This document shows, piece after piece, positions 1-52,115 of a DNA stretch of 64,000 nt; position 1 is the stretch's first letter, and each line of letters starts with the position of its first letter. The notes below the pieces were generated by a model. That model saw only the letters and a list, made by a program, of their open reading frames with translations, made no database searches and had not been told where the DNA came from. A program made the translations under genes and the position numbers. The stretch lies in assembly GCF_054482525.1 (NCBI RefSeq), contig NZ_CM137006.1. One strand, given 5' to 3'.

Positions 1-268
1 CAATACTCAGAAAATTTTCCGCTGGGTGGAGAAAGACACCCCTGATGCGGTTAAAAAAATTCAGGCGTTGTTACCAGCTATCGAAAAAGCAATGCCACCT
101 CTGCTGGTGGCCCGAATGCGCAGTCATAGCTCAGCCTATTTTCGGGAACTAGTGGAGACGCGGGAACGACTGGTGAGAGACGCTGATGATTTTGTCGCAG
201 TGGCGATCGCTGGTTTCAACCAGATGAATCGTGGTGGCCCTGCAGGAAATATTGTGGCTGTGCATTGA
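1..268 (+). CDS. hypothetical prophage early-region protein; the frame is open to the window start, so the 5' end may lie upstream
   Basis: ORF with a GTG at 26 and no upstream in-frame stop within the window; no recognisable family. Confidence 0.3.
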   Translation, partial: NTQKIFRWVEKDTPDAVKKIQALLPAIEKAMPPLLVARMRSHSSAYFRELVETRERLVRDADDFVAVAIAGFNQMNRGGPAGNIVAVH

Positions 269-339
269 CTCGCAATATTCATACCGGATCACTTCCGGCA
301 ATTTGTGAGTAAAAAGATTCGGTATCAAAAGAGGTGAGT

Positions 340-1410
340 ATGGCTAACGCCTGGCTCAGATTATGGCATGACATGCCAAATGACCCTAAGTGGCGAACAA
401 TTGCCAGGGTGTCAGGGCAGCCAATTGCAACAGTGATGGCAGTGTATATCCACCTCCTGGTGAGCGCGTCACGAAATGTCACGCGAGGTCACATTGATGT
501 CACGACAGAAGATTTGGCAAGTGCGCTCGACGTGACAGAAGAGGTAATTGATTCAATTTTGCAGACGATGCAGGGGCGGGTACTTGATGGTGATTTAATC
601 ACTGGATGGGAAAAACGCCAGGTGCTTAAAGAGGACAACGGCAATATTTCGCAAACCGCAAAATCTCCTGCAGAGCGCAAGAGGGCGCAGCGAGAGAGGG
701 AAAGAAAGCGGGAACAAAATGGCGATTGTCACGGCGCGTCACGAAATGTCACGCACATGTCACGACGAGTCACGACAGATAAAGATACAGATAAAGATAC
801 AGATCAAGAAGATCAAAACACTATGGTCCATGGCGTAAAAAACGCCACGAACCAGGCAGGGGATGTTCAGACCGTCAATCCTGGTCAGCCAGCAGGCACG
901 ACACCGGAAGCCGATTCAGCGTATGCGCTGAAAGCCGATTCGGGCGCTGTGCAGCAGGTGATGACCGCAAGGCCGGAGCAATCACACCAACTGCAGCAGC
1001 CTGAAGCCGATTCCGCCATTCAGCGGGAAGCCGATCGGGTAGTCCCGGAAAGCACCGGGCAGTCTGTGGGACGAGTGGATTATCCGGATGTGTTCGAACA
1101 GGTCTGGCGGGAGTACCCGTTGCGTGCTGGGGCAAACCCGAAGAAATCCGCTTTCAGTGCTTGGAAGGCCAGATTACGCGAGGGGGTGCCACCAGAGGCC
1201 ATGCTGGATGGCGTGAGGCGTTACGCAAGATACTTGGCGGCTACCGGGAAAACGGGAACGGAATTTGTTCAGCGAGCGACGACGTTTTTTGGACCGGATC
1301 GGAATTTTGAGAACCCCTGGTTGCTCCCGGTAAGCGGCACGAACAACCAGCGTTGTGTGAATCATATTTCTGAACCGGATAACGAAATTCCGCCGGGCTT
1401 CAGGGGGTAA
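340..1410 (+). CDS. phage replication initiation / replisome-organizer protein with a DnaT-like C-terminal tail and origin iterons inside the gene
   Basis: SD AAGAGG 7 nt before the ATG at 340. The C-terminus (...HISEPDNEIPPGFRG) matches the C-terminus of primosomal protein DnaT (...VSEPDSQIPPGFRG). Two clusters of GTCACG repeats lie in the coding sequence. It sits where the O gene would be, upstream of the nin region. Confidence 0.65.
   Translation: MANAWLRLWHDMPNDPKWRTIARVSGQPIATVMAVYIHLLVSASRNVTRGHIDVTTEDLASALDVTEEVIDSILQTMQGRVLDGDLITGWEKRQVLKEDNGNISQTAKSPAERKRAQRERERKREQNGDCHGASRNVTHMSRRVTTDKDTDKDTDQEDQNTMVHGVKNATNQAGDVQTVNPGQPAGTTPEADSAYALKADSGAVQQVMTARPEQSHQLQQPEADSAIQREADRVVPESTGQSVGRVDYPDVFEQVWREYPLRAGANPKKSAFSAWKARLREGVPPEAMLDGVRRYARYLAATGKTGTEFVQRATTFFGPDRNFENPWLLPVSGTNNQRCVNHISEPDNEIPPGFRG
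466..504. repeat. iteron cluster 1: 4x GTCACG at 10-11 bp spacing
   Basis: GTCACG at 468, 478, 488 (GTCACA) and 499; one copy per helical turn. Confidence 0.5.
728..825. promoter_or_regulatory. candidate replication origin: 5x GTCACG iterons (728-774) followed by an AT-rich GATAAAGATACA direct repeat (775-825)
   Basis: GTCACG at 728, 738, 748, 759 and 769 (spacing 10,10,11,10), immediately followed by gataaagatacagataaagatacagatcaagaagatc; the lambda ori is likewise iterons plus an AT-rich segment inside O. Confidence 0.5.
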
Positions 1411-1450
1411 GTGTTAATTTCTGGTCATGAGGTAATTTTCAGGAGGGCTT

Positions 1451-1876
1451 GTGGCAAAAGTTTTTACACAAGAAGAGCGGGAAAAAATTAAAGGGCAGGT
1501 TGTTGAACTTGTACGTCTGAGCGGTCGCGAGACGTTGCGGCAACTGGAAGCCAGGACAGGTGCGACAAGATATCTGATGAGTGTTCTCGCCAGAGAGCTG
1601 GTTGCCAGTGGCGATGTATACAACTCTGGTTACGGGTTATTCCCGTCTGAACAGGCGCGTAAGGACTGGCAAAATGCTCGCAAAAAACTCTCAAGGGCAA
1701 AGGTGAAGAAACCTGCAGTGGTTGATCCGGACCTTATCTGGTCGTTACCAGACGGCGAAATACGCCGCTACGACAGGCGCCTGAATATAATCTGTCGCGA
1801 GTGCCGGAAGAGCGAAGCTATGCAGCGTGTACTGGCATTTTATCAAGGAAATGTTAGGTATTTTAGACGTTACTAG
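1451..1876 (+). CDS. hypothetical protein with an N-terminal winged-helix-like segment (replication-module accessory?)
   Basis: SD caggaggg upstream; the TLRQLEARTGATRYLMSVLARELVASG segment resembles a wHTH; no helicase-loader (P/DnaC-like) gene follows. Confidence 0.45.
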   Translation: MAKVFTQEEREKIKGQVVELVRLSGRETLRQLEARTGATRYLMSVLARELVASGDVYNSGYGLFPSEQARKDWQNARKKLSRAKVKKPAVVDPDLIWSLPDGEIRRYDRRLNIICRECRKSEAMQRVLAFYQGNVRYFRRY

Positions 1877-2029
1877 ATTAAAGAGCATTAGTTCAGATGT
1901 GAATTGACATTTTCATGGCGCAGGGTAGAGCCAGCGTGGTTGTCCGCTTTGCGTCAAAACCAGATATTACCAGATTTAGACATATATTCCCGATAGACCT
2001 GCTCTGATGCTACACTCTGTGCTATTTTC

Positions 2030-2716
2030 ATGACCCCAATAAAAATATTTATGACTATTGCTGATTTCAAACGGCCTAAATTGGAGCTCCCAAACGGGGC
2101 AAACAAACTACTACTGCACTCTTGCTGTGCTCCATGTTCCGGTGAAGTGATGGAGGCGCTTCAGGCCTCGGGAATCGACTACACCATCTTTTTCTACAAC
2201 CCGAACATTCATCCTCAGAAAGAGTATTTAATTCGTAAGGATGAAAATATTCGCTTTGCTGAACAACACGGCGTGCCGTTTATCGATGCTGATTACGACA
2301 CCGACAACTGGTTTGAACGTGCCAAAGGAATGGAATGGGAGCCTGAGAGGGGGATCCGTTGTACCATGTGTTTTGACATGCGTTTTGAGCGGACAGCGTT
2401 GTACGCTGCTGAAAATGGTTTCAGTGTGATCAGCAGTTCACTGGGCATTTCACGCTGGAAAAATATGCAGCAGGTTAACGAGTGTGGGCGGCGAGCTGTT
2501 GCGCATTATCCGGGTATGGTGTACTGGGATTATAACTGGCGCAAGCAGGGCGGCTCGTCCCGTATGATTGAAATCAGCAAGCGCGAAAAATTCTATCAGC
2601 AGGAATATTGTGGCTGTGTGTATTCTCTGCGCGATACCAATCTACACCGCAAATCTCAGGGACGCCCTCTTATCAAAATTGGCCAACTCCACTACGGAAA
2701 AGAAGAGAAGGAGTGA
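2030..2716 (+). CDS. queH: epoxyqueuosine reductase QueH (DUF208 family, cobalamin-independent)
   Basis: N-terminal [14 protein letters not shown]...[23 protein letters not shown]...[10 protein letters not shown], plus the CTMCF and CGCVYSL cysteine motifs typical of QueH/DUF208; preceded by a 150-bp non-coding stretch with promoter-like hexamers. Confidence 0.8.
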
Positions 2717-2952
2717 TTTTATGGATCACCTTTCTGATTGATTTTATATTGGCGAGGTAACGGGAGTTAAGTAGAATGGCTGCGGGTGCTTGAGGCTATC
2801 TGTCTCAGGCATGAACACCAAAGGCAGATAGAGAAAAGCCCCAGTTAACATTACGCGTCCTGCAAGACGCTTAACATTAATCTGAGGCTCAATCTATGAA
2901 CGGCAAATCTAGGTTAGCCTCTTACGTGCCGAAAGGCAAGGAGAAGCAGGCT

Positions 2953-3108
2953 ATGAAGCAGCAAAAGGCGATGTTAATCGCCCTGATCGTCATCTGTTTA
3001 ACCGTCATTGTGACGGCACTGGTAACGAGGAAAGACCTCTGCGAGGTACGAATCCGAACCGGCCAGACGGAGGTCGCTGTCTTCACAGCTTACGAACCTG
3101 AGGAGTAA
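2953..3108 (+). CDS. hok: Hok/Gef family type I toxin
   Basis: MKQQKAMLIALIVICLTVIVTALVTRKDLCEVRIRTGQTEVAVFTAYEPEE is near-identical in pattern to Gef/HokC. Strong SD AAGGAG 9 nt upstream. An in-frame upstream start at 2896 is mok-like. An inverted repeat at 2796-2846 lies in the leader. Confidence 0.8.
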   Translation: MKQQKAMLIALIVICLTVIVTALVTRKDLCEVRIRTGQTEVAVFTAYEPEE

Positions 3109-3251
3109 GAGACCTGGCGGGGGAGAAATCCCTCGCCACCTCTGATGTGTCAGGCATCCTCAACGCACCCGCACTTAACCCGCTTCGGCGTTTTTTCCGT
3201 TGATTAACTCTAGTTATTAGAGAACCGAACTTTTATTGATGGGGCAGGGAG

Positions 3252-3644
3252 ATGAAGAAACTTGTTTTAGTCGCAGGTGTAATGATTGCAACAGTAATGT
3301 TGGGAGGGTGTGCAGCAAAGATCGATCCAGCGTTGAAAGCAGAAGCAATGAAGCCACTAACATGTAATGATGAAAAGCAATGTGACTTTTATTGGAAACG
3401 AGCGCAATTCTGGTTGGCTAATAATTCCTCATGGAAAATTCAAACGGCGACAGACACGCTAATTTCCACTTATAATCCCTCTCCAAATAGTCCATTCCTC
3501 GCTTATCAAGTGAGTAAAATGCCAAATGAAGATGGATCCTCAAGAATTTTCATCAAGCCTTTTTGCGATAATATGTTTGGCTGTCAACCAAACCCCTATC
3601 AGGCAGTTGTTTCCTTTAAAAACTTCGTTAAAACAGGGCAGTAG
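3252..3644 (+). CDS. lipoprotein of unknown function (AT-rich moron)
   Basis: Signal peptide with lipobox MLGG-C; SD gggag; low GC compared with the flanks. Confidence 0.65.
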   Translation: MKKLVLVAGVMIATVMLGGCAAKIDPALKAEAMKPLTCNDEKQCDFYWKRAQFWLANNSSWKIQTATDTLISTYNPSPNSPFLAYQVSKMPNEDGSSRIFIKPFCDNMFGCQPNPYQAVVSFKNFVKTGQ

Positions 3645-3843
3645 TGTATAGCTTGGACGATAAATTATTAGTGAAAACGCCGTAAACCCTCACCCAATGT
3701 GGACTAAGTCTATCAAACATGACTGTGATGATTAGTCCGTAGTTGTTGTCTATGAAATCTGGATTGAGTCAGGGTTTAATCCAATAATTATTCTATCGTT
3801 CCTTTACAAGTCCGGTATATTACTTTCAGTTTGTTTTAGCATA

Positions 3844-3868
3844 CCCGCTTCGGCGGGTTTTGTTTTTT
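3844..3868 (+). terminator. rho-independent terminator
   Basis: cccgc-ttcg-gcggg hairpin followed by a T-run. Confidence 0.7.
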
Positions 3869-3940
3869 CCTGGCATTCTGGTTTACAATTCGCACGCCAG
3901 CCTGAACAACTGGCACCTGCTGCGCCAGCAGAGACAACCG

Positions 3941-4219
3941 ATGGCGCACGATACCAAATTACACAATTCTGATGATTCTGCCGTCTTTGCCAGCAGGCAC
4001 GGGCGGCGTTCCCGCACTTTCAAATCTGACTGGTTCCAGCATGACCCATGTACTGAAGAACAGGCCGAATGGCTAATTCATAACTATCGCAGACGCGGAT
4101 ACGAGATTAAGAAAGCCCTCAGCCTCGATTATCGTCACTGGATAATCTATGTCAGGCTCCCTTATTCCGAACGCCCACCGCGCCCATCCCGCACATACCA
4201 GCAACGGATCTGGAGGTAA
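3941..4219 (+). CDS. hypothetical nin-region protein (92 aa from the first Met after the terminator)
   Basis: The listed ORF 3860-4219 begins inside the terminator hairpin, so the first plausible start is the Met at 3941; its 3' end overlaps the following ORF in another frame. Confidence 0.35.
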   Translation: MAHDTKLHNSDDSAVFASRHGRRSRTFKSDWFQHDPCTEEQAEWLIHNYRRRGYEIKKALSLDYRHWIIYVRLPYSERPPRPSRTYQQRIWR

Positions 4220-4292
4220 CGTGCGGATATTACTTCGACCTGTTCTGGTACCGGAACTCGGGCTGGTGGTCCTTAGGCCGGGCCGTGAATCC

Positions 4293-5270
4293 ATGCAAGT
4301 ATTTCATAACCCTCGAGTGCTGGTGGAGCCTGAACCGAAAAGCATGCGCGGTCTGCCGTCCGGAGTCGTCCCTGCCGTTCGCCAGCCGCTGGCGGAGGAT
4401 AAATCATTACTGCCATTTTTCAGCGATGAGCGGGTGATTCGTGCTGCTGGCGGCGCTGGGGCGCTGTCTGACTGGCTGTTGCGTCATGTCAAATCCTGCC
4501 AGTGGCCTCATGGTGACTATCATCACAGTGAAATCGTCATACATCGTTACGGTACCAGCGCGATGGTGTTGTGCTGGCACTGCGACAACCAGTTGCGTGA
4601 CCAGACATCCGAATCACTCGGGCAACTTGCTCATCAAAACCTGTCAGCATGGATGATTGACGTCATACGCCATGCAATGAATGGCACGCAGGAGCGGGAA
4701 TTGTCGCTGGCTGAATTATCTTGGTGGGCGGTCTGCAATCAGGTGGCGGACGCGCTTCCGGAGGCAGTATTACGTCGTTCTCTGGGGGTACGTGCGGAAA
4801 AAATCCGCTCCTTGTACCGCGAAAGCGACATCGTACCGGGAGAGCAGACCGCCACCAGCATACTGAAGCAGCGCACAAAAAATCTTGCGCCGTTGCCTCA
4901 TGCCCACCAGCAACAGAACCCACCACAGGAAAAGACGGTGGTATGCATCACCGTTGATCCGGAGTCTCCGGAATCTTTCATGAGGCGACCTAAACGTCGC
5001 CGTTGGCTAAATGAGAAATATACGCGCTGGGTGAAGACACAGCCGTGTGCGTGTTGTGGTCAGCCAGCCGACGATCCCCATCACCTGATTGGTCACGGTC
5101 AGGGAGGGATGGGAACAAAGGCCCACGATATTTTCACGCTACCGTTGTGCCGGGAACATCACAACGAACTTCATGCGGATCCGCTGGCGTTCGAAGAAAA
5201 GCATGGTTCCCAGGTTGATTTAATTTTTCGTTTTCTTGATCACGCCTTTGCAACCGGCGTGCTCGGGTAA
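4293..5270 (+). CDS. DUF968-like nin-region protein with a C-terminal Cys/His (HNH-like) motif; start uncertain (4149 or 4293)
   Basis: C-terminus ...QPCACCGQPADDPHHLIGHGQGG...LPLCREHHNELHADP, typical of the lambdoid DUF968 family; lies directly upstream of rusA. Confidence 0.55.
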   Translation: MQVFHNPRVLVEPEPKSMRGLPSGVVPAVRQPLAEDKSLLPFFSDERVIRAAGGAGALSDWLLRHVKSCQWPHGDYHHSEIVIHRYGTSAMVLCWHCDNQLRDQTSESLGQLAHQNLSAWMIDVIRHAMNGTQERELSLAELSWWAVCNQVADALPEAVLRRSLGVRAEKIRSLYRESDIVPGEQTATSILKQRTKNLAPLPHAHQQQNPPQEKTVVCITVDPESPESFMRRPKRRRWLNEKYTRWVKTQPCACCGQPADDPHHLIGHGQGGMGTKAHDIFTLPLCREHHNELHADPLAFEEKHGSQVDLIFRFLDHAFATGVLG

Positions 5271-5282
5271 AAGAGGTTACTG

Positions 5283-5642
5283 ATGCGTATAGAGTTTGTT
5301 TTGCCTTATCCGCCGACGGTGAATACTTACTGGCGACGTCGTGGCAACACATATTTTGTATCAAAAGTCGGTGAGCGTTATCGCCGTGATGTGGCACTAA
5401 TTGTTCGCCAGCAGCGGTTGAAATTAAACCTGTCCGGAAGGCTGGCAATAAAAATTATTGCAGAGCCACCGGATAAGCGCCGCCGCGACCTGGACAATAT
5501 CCTGAAGGCACCACTGGATGCGCTGACGCATGCCGGACTTCTCATAGACGACGAGCAGTTTGATGAAATCAATATTGTGCGCGGACTGCCTGTTCCTGGT
5601 GGTCGGCTGGGGATAAAAATCACAGAACTGGAGTGCGCATGA
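5283..5642 (+). CDS. rusA: Holliday junction resolvase RusA
   Basis: 120 aa; YPPTVNTYW...RRRDLDNILKAPLDALTHAGLLIDDEQ...GGRLGIKITELE matches the RusA family including the catalytic DLDN. Confidence 0.85.
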   Translation: MRIEFVLPYPPTVNTYWRRRGNTYFVSKVGERYRRDVALIVRQQRLKLNLSGRLAIKIIAEPPDKRRRDLDNILKAPLDALTHAGLLIDDEQFDEINIVRGLPVPGGRLGIKITELECA

Positions 5643-6328
5643 ATAACCAGTATTTACAGTTTGTGCGTGAGCAGCTCATTATCGCCACCGCTGATTTGAG
5701 TGGGGCAACAAAAGGTCAGCTTGAAGCCTGGCAAGAGAATGCCATGTTCGATACAGGGCGTTACAGGCGAAAAAAAATCCGGTACCGCGATGAAGTGACT
5801 GGAAAAATGATAACGCGGGATAATCCACCAATCCCGGGAAAGCAATCGCTGGCGAAGGGGACGTCAATTCCTCTGGTCAGTCCGGTTGAGTTTTCGACAT
5901 CATCGTGGCGGCGGGCTGTTTTGTCTCTTGAAGAACATCATAAAGCCTGGTTGTTGTGGTGTTACAGCGGGAGTATTTGTTGGGAATATCAGATCGCGAT
6001 AACACAGTGGGCGTGGAATGAATTTAATACTCAATCCGGTACCAGAAAAATTGCAGGGAAAACGCAGGAACGCCTGAAAAAATTAATCTGGCTGGCGGCG
6101 CAGGCAGTAAAAGCAGAACTTTTTGGTGGGGAAGGTTATGAATACCAGGAGCTGGCATTACTGGCGGGAGTGACAACTAAAAACTGGTCCAAAACATTTA
6201 CTCGTCACTGGGTTGCAATGAAACACATTTTTCACCGACTTGATAGTGAGGCTTTATTGTTTGTAATGAGAACACGTTCAAAACAAAAGGCGGCATTTTC
6301 AAAGCAAAGTATTGCAAAAGTAGATTGA
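5633..6328 (+). CDS. late-gene antiterminator Q-like protein (assigned mainly by position)
   Basis: Last early gene; overlaps the rusA stop; followed by a non-coding stretch ending in a strong intrinsic terminator (tR'-like), then tRNAs and the lysis genes. Confidence 0.5.
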   Translation: MRMNNQYLQFVREQLIIATADLSGATKGQLEAWQENAMFDTGRYRRKKIRYRDEVTGKMITRDNPPIPGKQSLAKGTSIPLVSPVEFSTSSWRRAVLSLEEHHKAWLLWCYSGSICWEYQIAITQWAWNEFNTQSGTRKIAGKTQERLKKLIWLAAQAVKAELFGGEGYEYQELALLAGVTTKNWSKTFTRHWVAMKHIFHRLDSEALLFVMRTRSKQKAAFSKQSIAKVD

Positions 6329-6393
6329 AAGGCATATATTTCATGCAAATCTGATATTTTGCCGATTTTGTACGTGATGGCAAAAGCAAACAA

Positions 6394-6418
6394 AACCCGC
6401 CCACAAGCGGGTTTTTTG
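6394..6418 (+). terminator. tR'-like intrinsic terminator downstream of Q
   Basis: cccgc-ccacaa-gcggg hairpin followed by TTTTTT. Confidence 0.7.
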
Positions 6419-6522
6419 TGCCACTTATCTCGGATAGACATGGTGAATGCGCTAGTGGAGGAGATAAGGGTGATTTTTGAATGCTTGCAACATTGATTTC
6501 GTAACGTTATTATCCTGCGCCC

Positions 6523-6598
6523 GGCCCTTTAGCTCAGTGGTGAGAGCGAGCGACTCATAATCGCCAGGTCGCTGGTTCAAATCCAGCAAGGGCCACCA
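6523..6598 (+). tRNA. ileZ: tRNA-Ile (anticodon CAU, lysidine type; ileX/ileZ-like)
   Basis: 76 nt ending in CCA; near-identical to E. coli ileX; anticodon loop cuCAUaa. Confidence 0.85.
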
Positions 6599-6599
6599 G

Positions 6600-6676
6600 C
6601 CGCCACTAGCTCATCAGGAAAGAGCGTCAACCCTTTAAGTTGAGTGTGCGAGGTTCGAGTCCCCGGTGGCGGTCCA
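6600..6676 (+). tRNA. tRNA, probable Lys (anticodon UUU), with unusual C33 and C1:G72
   Basis: 77-nt cloverleaf; D stem gctc/gagc, anticodon stem tcaac/gttga, loop ccTTTaa, T loop ttcgagt, encoded CCA; one mismatch in the T stem. Confidence 0.55.
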
Positions 6677-6678
6677 GT

Positions 6679-6754
<76 letters not shown>

Positions 6755-6757
6755 TAT

Positions 6758-6832
<75 letters not shown>

Positions 6833-7038
6833 GTTAGAGTCTTTCAGTCTGCGATGATGGGAAATCCCGGAGTGACTGAAAGACGTTTAAGTTATGAATG
6901 ATCGCTTTTTTTGCAAAATTGCTGTGCAGAAATACTAACCTTCGGGCAGGCGATCATTCATAAGCACTCTGCTTTTATTCCGATTAACTGTGGGTGGTTT
7001 GTTGGATAGAGTGCTTCCCTTACTGTATATATCGTTTC

Positions 7039-43292: not shown

Positions 43293-43839
43293 TATGTATT
43301 CCCTTGTGATTATAATCTTCATGAATATATCAATAAGTGCTGTTATCCAAAAAAAAGCACATTTGGATACTATTCTATGAAGTTCATTTTATTTTAAAGA
43401 TTACATGTAACAAATGTATTTAAAAGATTTCAAAATGTTTCCAATCTATTTAATATAATTCAGAATTATGAATTCTAAATATAAGCATTCATGAAAATTA
43501 TAAATACATATCAATATGTTATGAGTTGAGCGGAAATATAGGGGGTATCAATGATTGTTGCGCCAAACGGCTGGTGTGATCACGCGCACATTAATGAAGA
43601 CATAAAAAAAGCCGGCATCATGCCGGCCCAAAAAATATAAACAAGACGATAAAAGGCTAATAACGGAAGCATCATGACACAGAATAATAAAAAGGGATAA
43701 TTGTAATCAGTGCTAATATATTGATCGAATGAATTAATAAAGCCGATATCAAAGATAAATAAAATCGCTCAAAACGATTTTTCCTGTATTCACTGCCATT
43801 GCGCAAAAATTATCTATTTGTTCAAAAAATGATTGAGTC

Positions 43840-52028: not shown

Positions 52029-52115
52029 AACACATCAGATTTCCTGGTGTAACGAATTTTTTAAGTGCTTCTTGCTTAAGCAAGTTTCATCCCGACCCCC
52101 TCAGGGTCGGGATTT
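52029..52115 (+). ncRNA. dsrA: DsrA small regulatory RNA
   Basis: AACACATCAGATTTCCTGGTGTAACGAATTTTTTAAGTGCTTCTTGCTTAAGCAAGTTTCATCCCGACCCCCTCAGGGTCGGGATTT + T-run; matches the remembered DsrA sequence. Confidence 0.85.

Follow-up and report, generated by a model that had tools for sequence, protein, structure and literature searches.

The DNA analysed here (hereafter the window) is a 64,000 nt stretch of contig NZ_CM137006.1 (RefSeq assembly GCF_054482525.1), and its start falls within a Rac/Qin-type lambdoid prophage of E. coli. A gene predicted to encode the tRNA-modifying enzyme QueH was found in this prophage, and the following features make up its surroundings:

334-1410, + strand: replisome organiser
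1451..1876, + strand: DUF977 gene, labelled 'Ren-like' in phage HannyBb (Pfam PF06163, E 7.7e-28)
2051..2716, + strand: queH coding sequence (221 aa plus stop codon), predicted cobalamin-independent tRNA epoxyqueuosine(34) reductase, from Pfam, PDB, AF2 and RefSeq
2784..3108, + strand: hok/sok type I toxin-antitoxin module, hokD (Rfam RF01794 sok, 110 bits, 2784-2958; Hok/Mok ORF, 2896-3108)
3252-3644: 130-aa ORF with a lipoprotein-like N-terminus, MKKLVLVAGVMIATVMLGGC; no Pfam match; conserved in related prophages, where it is annotated as 'hypothetical protein'
6523-6832: tRNA array (Met-CAT, Lys-TTT, Thr-TGT, Gly-TCC), just after the antiterminator Q gene

The hok/sok module is complete and starts 68 bp 3' of queH, and RefSeq uses the name hokD for it in near-identical prophages. 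Downstream of the 130-aa ORF, the order is DUF968, RusA, antiterminator Q (5633-6328), the four tRNA genes, lysis genes and HK97-type head and tail genes. The initial annotation had placed the gene in the nin region of a prophage, and this agrees with its location in the early-right, nin-equivalent segment, bounded by the replication genes and DUF977 on one side and by hok, DUF968, RusA and Q on the other. The sRNA genes rseX (43604-43693, - strand) and dsrA (52029-52115, + strand) are present in the chromosomal flank, and this fits a prophage integrated at tRNA-Ser/mtfA, the site occupied in strain CM2.

The gene had been described as a 228-aa ORF with CCAPC, FIDADYD and downstream Cys motifs. 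The ORF list includes an ORF of this length on the + strand (2030-2716), and the CCAPC, FIDADYD, RCTMC and YCGC motifs can all be read in its translation. The start assigned to it at 2030 is probably about 7 codons too far 5', as the ATG at this position is not conserved, being replaced in an alignment by ATT followed by an in-frame TAA in the GF47 allele, and RefSeq and all orthologues start at ATG 2051 (MTIADFKRP..., 221 aa). No obvious Shine-Dalgarno sequence was seen in the queH leader. In the PHROGs collection, the protein corresponds to phrog_3217 ('unknown function'), and this profile begins at residue 41 of the 228-aa ORF, so that residues 1-40 (window positions 2030-2150), with CCAPC, are missed. 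It seems that many phage gene calls take an internal Met as the start and thereby lose the CCAPC cluster motif, and this may be why phrog_3217 has no assigned function.

Membership of the QueH family

QueH is an iron-sulfur, cobalamin-independent enzyme that converts epoxyqueuosine (oQ) to queuosine (Q) at position 34 of the tRNAs for Asp, Asn, His and Tyr. The assignment to this family, made initially from motifs, was upheld by a match of the window protein to Pfam PF02677 (QueH/DUF208) that spans profile positions 1-174 of 175 and is far beyond chance (E 1.1e-65; 221.5 bits, the curated cut-off being 23.5 bits). PF02677 was the only domain returned by the Pfam scan, with no QueG-type domain in the window protein, and no model match was obtained in an NCBIfam profile search.

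A search of 1.84 billion representative proteins produced 4,775 matches at E <= 0.001, and two diverse alignments were examined, one of 34 sequences (the window protein and 33 relatives) and one of 39 sequences from which the Thermotoga maritima enzyme was omitted. The window protein keeps the residue in every invariant column, namely C25, C26, N52, Y59, R62, E99, R103, C104, C107, K137, Q184, C187, G188 and C189. A further residue in the membership list, R111, is also present (34- and 39-sequence alignments). The cysteine motifs are encoded as follows:

2123..2137, + strand: CCAPC codons (Cys25-Cys26-Ala-Pro-Cys29), with C25 and C26 invariant in both alignments
2357..2371, + strand: RCxxC codons (Arg103-Cys104-x-x-Cys107), with R103, C104 and C107 invariant
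2606..2617, + strand: YCGC codons (Tyr186-Cys187-Gly188-Cys189), with C187, G188 and C189 invariant

At least 90% of the members of the 34-sequence alignment have C29, T. maritima being an exception with Asp, and in the 39-sequence alignment the residue is invariant. The Asp in question is Asp13 of T. maritima QueH, opposite Cys29 of the window protein (codon 2135-2137). As Cys is the family norm, the window protein is typical at this position and the enzyme of the crystal structure is the exception. A D13N mutant of T. maritima QueH has also been deposited in the PDB (9dco), and the reference QueH structure may therefore be atypical at a position that has been functionally probed.

The only QueH entries that have been solved are those of T. 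maritima, and the window protein matches the sequence of one of these (PDB 7lc5) with E 7.8e-22. An AF2 model of the window protein (mean pLDDT 95.3, pTM 0.91) was superimposed on 7lc5 by Foldseek with an rmsd of 1.3 A over 179 columns and a TM score of 0.92 on the target. The best five Foldseek matches in the PDB were all T. maritima QueH, and the next folds, TtuA-type sulfurtransferases, had E values weaker by approximately nine orders of magnitude. On the basis of its profile match, its invariant residues and its predicted fold, the window protein is a bona fide QueH.

The queH cassette and its promoter-like element

The non-coding gap 5' of queH extends from 1877 to 2050 (about 150-170 bp). 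A gap of 150 bp with promoter-like hexamers had been reported here initially; the gap was confirmed, and a generic sigma-70 two-hexamer scan of positions 1-7000 identified no promoter-like site in 1877-2050. An extended -10 element was instead recognised from its conservation in alignments, and the region can be described as follows:

1969..2007, + strand: left edge of the queH cassette; prophages that lack queH match the window to ~1951-1968 only, and some queH loci break at 1873-1987
2008..2016, + strand: predicted extended -10 element TGCTACACT, with TG at 2008-2009 and the -10 hexamer at 2011-2016, from comparative alignment
2030..2050, + strand: in-frame 5' extension of the 228-aa ORF, probably non-coding leader, given the ATT/TAA of GF47 and the divergence of chromosomal orthologues here

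The block (A/G)TGCTACA(A/C)T is the only 5' block conserved in all 8 aligned phage and chromosomal copies of queH, and the extended -10 promoter motif pattern that it matches is TGnTAnnnT. The form TGCTAC(A/C)(A/C)T is located 42-45 nt 5' of the start in E. albertii, Scandinavium, Kluyvera, Enterobacter and Symbiopectobacterium. The two-hexamer scan missed TGCTACACT because there is no good -35 sequence. It is likely that a native queH promoter was captured along with the gene, though this is an inference from the alignment.

The extent of the cassette was assessed from the ends of homology around queH. In 80 IMG/VR loci, homology starts 5' mostly at 1442 (the DUF977 start) and sometimes at 1744-1987, and ends 3' at 2784-2888 or at 3190. 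The ~1951-1968 limit in prophages lacking queH corresponds to query positions 510-527 of 1442-2716, and was seen in, for example, the LF82 locus, where a gene for an FRG-domain protein occupies the queH slot. On the 3' side, the allele groups diverge immediately past the stop codon. Taken together, the 5' limit and this divergence predict a mobile unit of about 750 bp (~1969-2722). No terminator-like hairpin was detected after queH in the window by a generic terminator scan (2717-2895), and an 11-bp hairpin without mismatches, GAGCAGGTCAT...ATGACCTGCTC, can be read in the alignment 3' of queH in the variants of E. coli B, GF47 and HannyBb.

Prophages carrying DUF977 were found in 4,044 genomes, and queH in just 994. 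The earlier suggestion that the gene is a moron is consistent with its absence from related prophages, with the mosaic junctions that bound it and with the conserved promoter-like element.

The space between the DUF977 gene and hokD (window 1877-3190) is a variable cargo slot, as exemplified by loci L008, L013, L078, L085 and L175. The slot may hold queH alone, queH with an NgoMIV-type restriction-modification pair (a C5 methylase, PF00145, and PF09015; 20 of 73 IMG/VR loci), or queH with a KwaB-like Kiwa gene. Pairs of HTH and M78/IrrE peptidase genes lie beyond hokD in some loci, and IS elements are found on both sides of hokD, including the interval that separates it from queH.

Distribution, origin and selection

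The queH gene was detected by megablast in 994 of 5,426 complete E. coli genomes (18%), and is full length in 984 of these. The queG gene is present in 5,425 of the 5,426, and the initial statement that E. coli uses QueG for this step was thus well founded. The accompanying view that the species has no queH was not, given its presence in 18% of complete genomes, where the RefSeq product name is already 'epoxyqueuosine reductase QueH'. As queG is close to universal, queH in E. coli is invariably an additional route, one that does not need B12.

A joined DUF977 and queH query was covered over at least 80% of its length in 957 genomes, compared with the 994 that carry queH, indicating that at least 96% of E. 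coli queH copies directly follow DUF977. As 957 of the 994 copies adjoin this phage gene, there is no sign of a spread of queH through E. coli chromosomal contexts unrelated to phages. All sampled E. coli contexts of queH are lambdoid prophages, which differ in backbone and in site of integration. They include prophages at the ompW site and at the tRNA-Ser/mtfA site, a defective Qin-like element of E. coli B, a Rac-like element beside trkG, a Qin-like element with a Kiwa-like gene, and a decaying prophage with a truncated queH copy. In strain B-DidR, which is derived from E. coli B, an intact queH (L083, 7022-7687) encoding a protein with 96% identity is located in the defective Qin-like prophage, and laboratory strains of the B lineage may thus depend on B12 for Q to a different degree from K-12. 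An identical copy of queH with the same phage neighbours was found in E. albertii.

At least 190 viral contigs in IMG/VR include queH, and the isolated phage HannyBb carries a copy that is labelled 'hypothetical'. A protein-level search of a curated phage collection identified QueH homologues in 25 of 50,697 records, most of them short metagenomic fragments or oversized records, with only HannyBb convincing. Some of the records with QueH homologues in this collection (among H104, H105 and H122) are 280-380 kb in length, such as Acinetobacter phage MD-2021a and Staphylococcus phage SA 1306 Kay. The oversized 'phage' records may be bacterial or transduced DNA and not phage genomes.

The gene was also found as lone cargo on conjugative IncF plasmids, namely 11 plasmids of Klebsiella pneumoniae (~84% nucleotide identity) and one of Salmonella (91.7%). 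Two of these copies are:

L176, 6001-6669: queH on a Klebsiella IncFIB/IncFII plasmid
L177, 6001-6669: queH on a Salmonella IncFII plasmid

The presence of queH alone on IncF plasmids of Klebsiella and Salmonella argues for repeated selection of the trait in enterobacteria already equipped with QueG.

The nearest QueH proteins of non-phage origin are those of Scandinavium (92% protein identity), Kluyvera (91%) and Enterobacter (88-90%), and no phage genes were found in the contexts of the genes that encode them. Providencia QueH is more distant, with ~80% identity in the alignment used for the neighbour-joining tree and 84% by BLASTP, and its gene adjoins tmcA and purC. The six phage alleles group together as a single clade in the neighbour-joining tree, inside the chromosomal QueH of the Enterobacteriaceae, and this points to a single capture. 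Among five phage alleles, dN/dS is 0.04-0.09 with dS up to 0.46, indicating that strong purifying selection has acted over the long term while the gene was carried by phages.

These values bear directly on whether the gene is no more than a neutral passenger, picked up by illegitimate recombination and hitch-hiking with successful prophages at no benefit to phage or host. The function of queH is redundant where queG is universal, the slot that it occupies holds many unrelated cargo genes, and truncated copies are known from decaying prophages, all as would be expected of a passenger. However, neutrality is contradicted by the low dN/dS across so wide a range of dS, and 984 of 994 copies are full length, the gene has persisted across several prophage backbones and integration sites, and it has been mobilised independently onto plasmids. 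This explanation is therefore considered improbable.

The close relationship to chromosomal QueH likewise bears on the idea that the enzyme has been re-purposed and now either acts on a different substrate (a 7-deazaguanine base in DNA, or an epoxide other than oQ) or takes part in defence or anti-defence. Phages do use Q-pathway enzymes for DNA modification (PMC6884629), and queH adjoins hok/sok and, elsewhere, an NgoMIV-type restriction-modification system or a Kiwa-like gene, in a slot rich in defence genes. However, no DpdA/TGT, QueA or preQ0-synthesis gene is annotated in the prophages inspected, and QueH was absent from the DNA-modifying phages studied by Hutinet et al. (PMC6884629). With 88-92% identity to chromosomal QueH and all invariant residues kept, the protein also gives no sign of divergence, and a re-purposed enzyme is very hard to credit. 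A role in DNA modification specifically was rejected, as partner genes are not annotated in the inspected prophages.

Proposed role of a mobile QueH and relation to known systems

A connection between queH and the tRNA array of the prophage had been proposed in the initial annotation, together with the observation that the tRNAs of the phage are not Q substrates. The latter is correct, as there is no tRNA with a GUN anticodon among the four. The connection itself was rejected for want of evidence: the array is separated from queH by 3.8 kb and follows the antiterminator Q gene, includes no GUN tRNA and is variable, other prophages with queH having Ile+Arg, Ile+Thr or Thr+Gly sets. The CAT-anticodon tRNA of the array could be an Ile2-type (lysidine) tRNA. 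The fraction of NAU among Asn, Asp, His and Tyr codons is 0.594 in the prophage and 0.622 in the chromosomal flank, the codon use thus being like that of the host, and a need of the phage for Q in the translation of NAU-rich genes of its own was also rejected, as there is no such bias.

The orientation of queH leaves room for a role in the lytic cycle. The gene is co-oriented with the early-right operon and could be expressed only on induction. It would then be an auxiliary gene of the lytic cycle and not one of lysogenic conversion, read mainly by early-right transcription after induction and either raising Q for the synthesis of phage proteins or overriding a host response. No terminator-like site was found between queH and the co-oriented replication genes upstream, and queH is retained in the isolated phage HannyBb. 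In addition, a 2026 preprint describes a rise in Shewanella queG and in the Q/oQ ratio on phage infection, indicating that the oQ-to-Q step can be a regulated node. However, NAU use in the prophage is no higher than in the flank, and the promoter-like element of phage queH is the same as that of chromosomal copies. Defective Qin-like prophages that have lost lytic function, for example the one in E. coli B, still carry the gene intact, and it is also found on conjugative plasmids. A lytic role is thus rather unlikely, though less so than a neutral passenger.

The explanation that best accounts for the data as a whole, to which we assign a probability of about three in four, is that this is a functional QueH, captured once together with its promoter, that provides the lysogen with a B12-independent second route to Q. 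A lambdoid phage lineage would have captured queH on a single occasion from the chromosome of a member of the Enterobacteriaceae, with the native extended -10 promoter, and the gene would since have been carried as a ~750 bp cassette in the variable slot that separates the replication/DUF977 genes from hok/sok. In the repressed prophage, transcription would probably start from the promoter of the cassette. The prophage QueH would then reduce oQ34 to Q34 on the tRNA-Asp, -Asn, -His and -Tyr of the host without B12, and host or phage may benefit. As E. coli is unable to synthesise B12 de novo, a prophage queH would give the lysogen a second route to Q that is independent of this cofactor. To our knowledge, no phenotypic difference between oQ and Q has been established. 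QueH has been reported to replace QueG in the conversion of oQ to Q without cobalamin (PMC5372724), and oQ reduction in E. coli is described as cobamide-dependent in the title of Frey et al. 1988, cited in the same paper (PMC5372724).

The identity of the gene is not new, as RefSeq already labels it QueH. The gene is best regarded as a phage-borne addition to a known enzyme family and as a novel type of moron cargo. No homologues of QueA, QueG or QueH were reported in the viruses analysed by Hutinet et al. in 2019 (PMC6884629), and no paper on a phage- or prophage-borne QueH was found in a full-text literature search. Queuosine influences how Asn, Asp, His and Tyr codons are decoded, and links have been made to biofilm formation, virulence, and metal and oxidative stress (PMC10570037, PMC9508795).

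It is possible, though on balance doubtful, that mobile queH, in lambdoid prophages of E. coli and E. albertii and on IncF plasmids of Klebsiella and Salmonella, constitutes a lysogenic-conversion trait that acts on the tRNA epitranscriptome. If so, queH would uncouple the last step of Q synthesis from imported B12, and cells that are deficient in btuB or live where B12 is scarce would keep their tRNA fully Q-modified, with shifts in NAU/NAC decoding and in Q-linked traits such as stress tolerance, biofilm formation and virulence. The phage might also gain control in this way over a step that is regulated by some hosts when they are infected. A B12-independent enzyme carried by phages or plasmids would represent a simple and testable case of the rewiring of host tRNA modification by mobile elements. 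Strains with queH, which make up approximately one fifth of E. coli genomes and include a derivative of E. coli B, may differ from K-12 in oQ/Q when B12 is not available, and such a difference would bear on work on tRNA modification and on recombinant expression.

Compared with T. maritima QueH (7lc5), the window protein belongs to the same family and has the same fold and CC...CxxC...CGC cysteine set, but the two share only ~30-33% identity and the window gene is carried by a prophage and is not chromosomal. QueG performs the same reaction, oQ34 to Q34 on tRNA (PMC5372724), but belongs to an unrelated family and uses another cofactor, and queG is a core gene (5,425/5,426) whereas queH is accessory (994/5,426). 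The chromosomal QueH of Scandinavium, Kluyvera and Enterobacter are much closer, with 88-92% identity, equal length and the same extended -10 element in front of the gene. However, the neighbours of the chromosomal genes encode an SDR, an MBL-fold hydrolase and LysR regulators, whereas the E. coli and E. albertii copies are found inside lambdoid prophages.

Like the lambdoid morons lom, bor and stx, which are lysogenic-conversion cargo, queH is a single cargo gene between conserved modules, is missing from close relatives and has a promoter-like element. It differs in that autonomous transcription is a prediction and no terminator is evident in the window variant, and in that the cargo is a tRNA-modification enzyme and not a surface protein, toxin or defence gene. 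The Dpd-type gene sets for 7-deazaguanine modification of phage DNA are likewise phage-borne genes of the queuosine pathway (PMC6884629). However, those sets comprise FolE, QueD, QueE and QueC with DpdA, and have been reported to lack QueA, QueG and QueH (PMC6884629), whereas the prophage described here carries the tRNA-specific enzyme of the last step alone.
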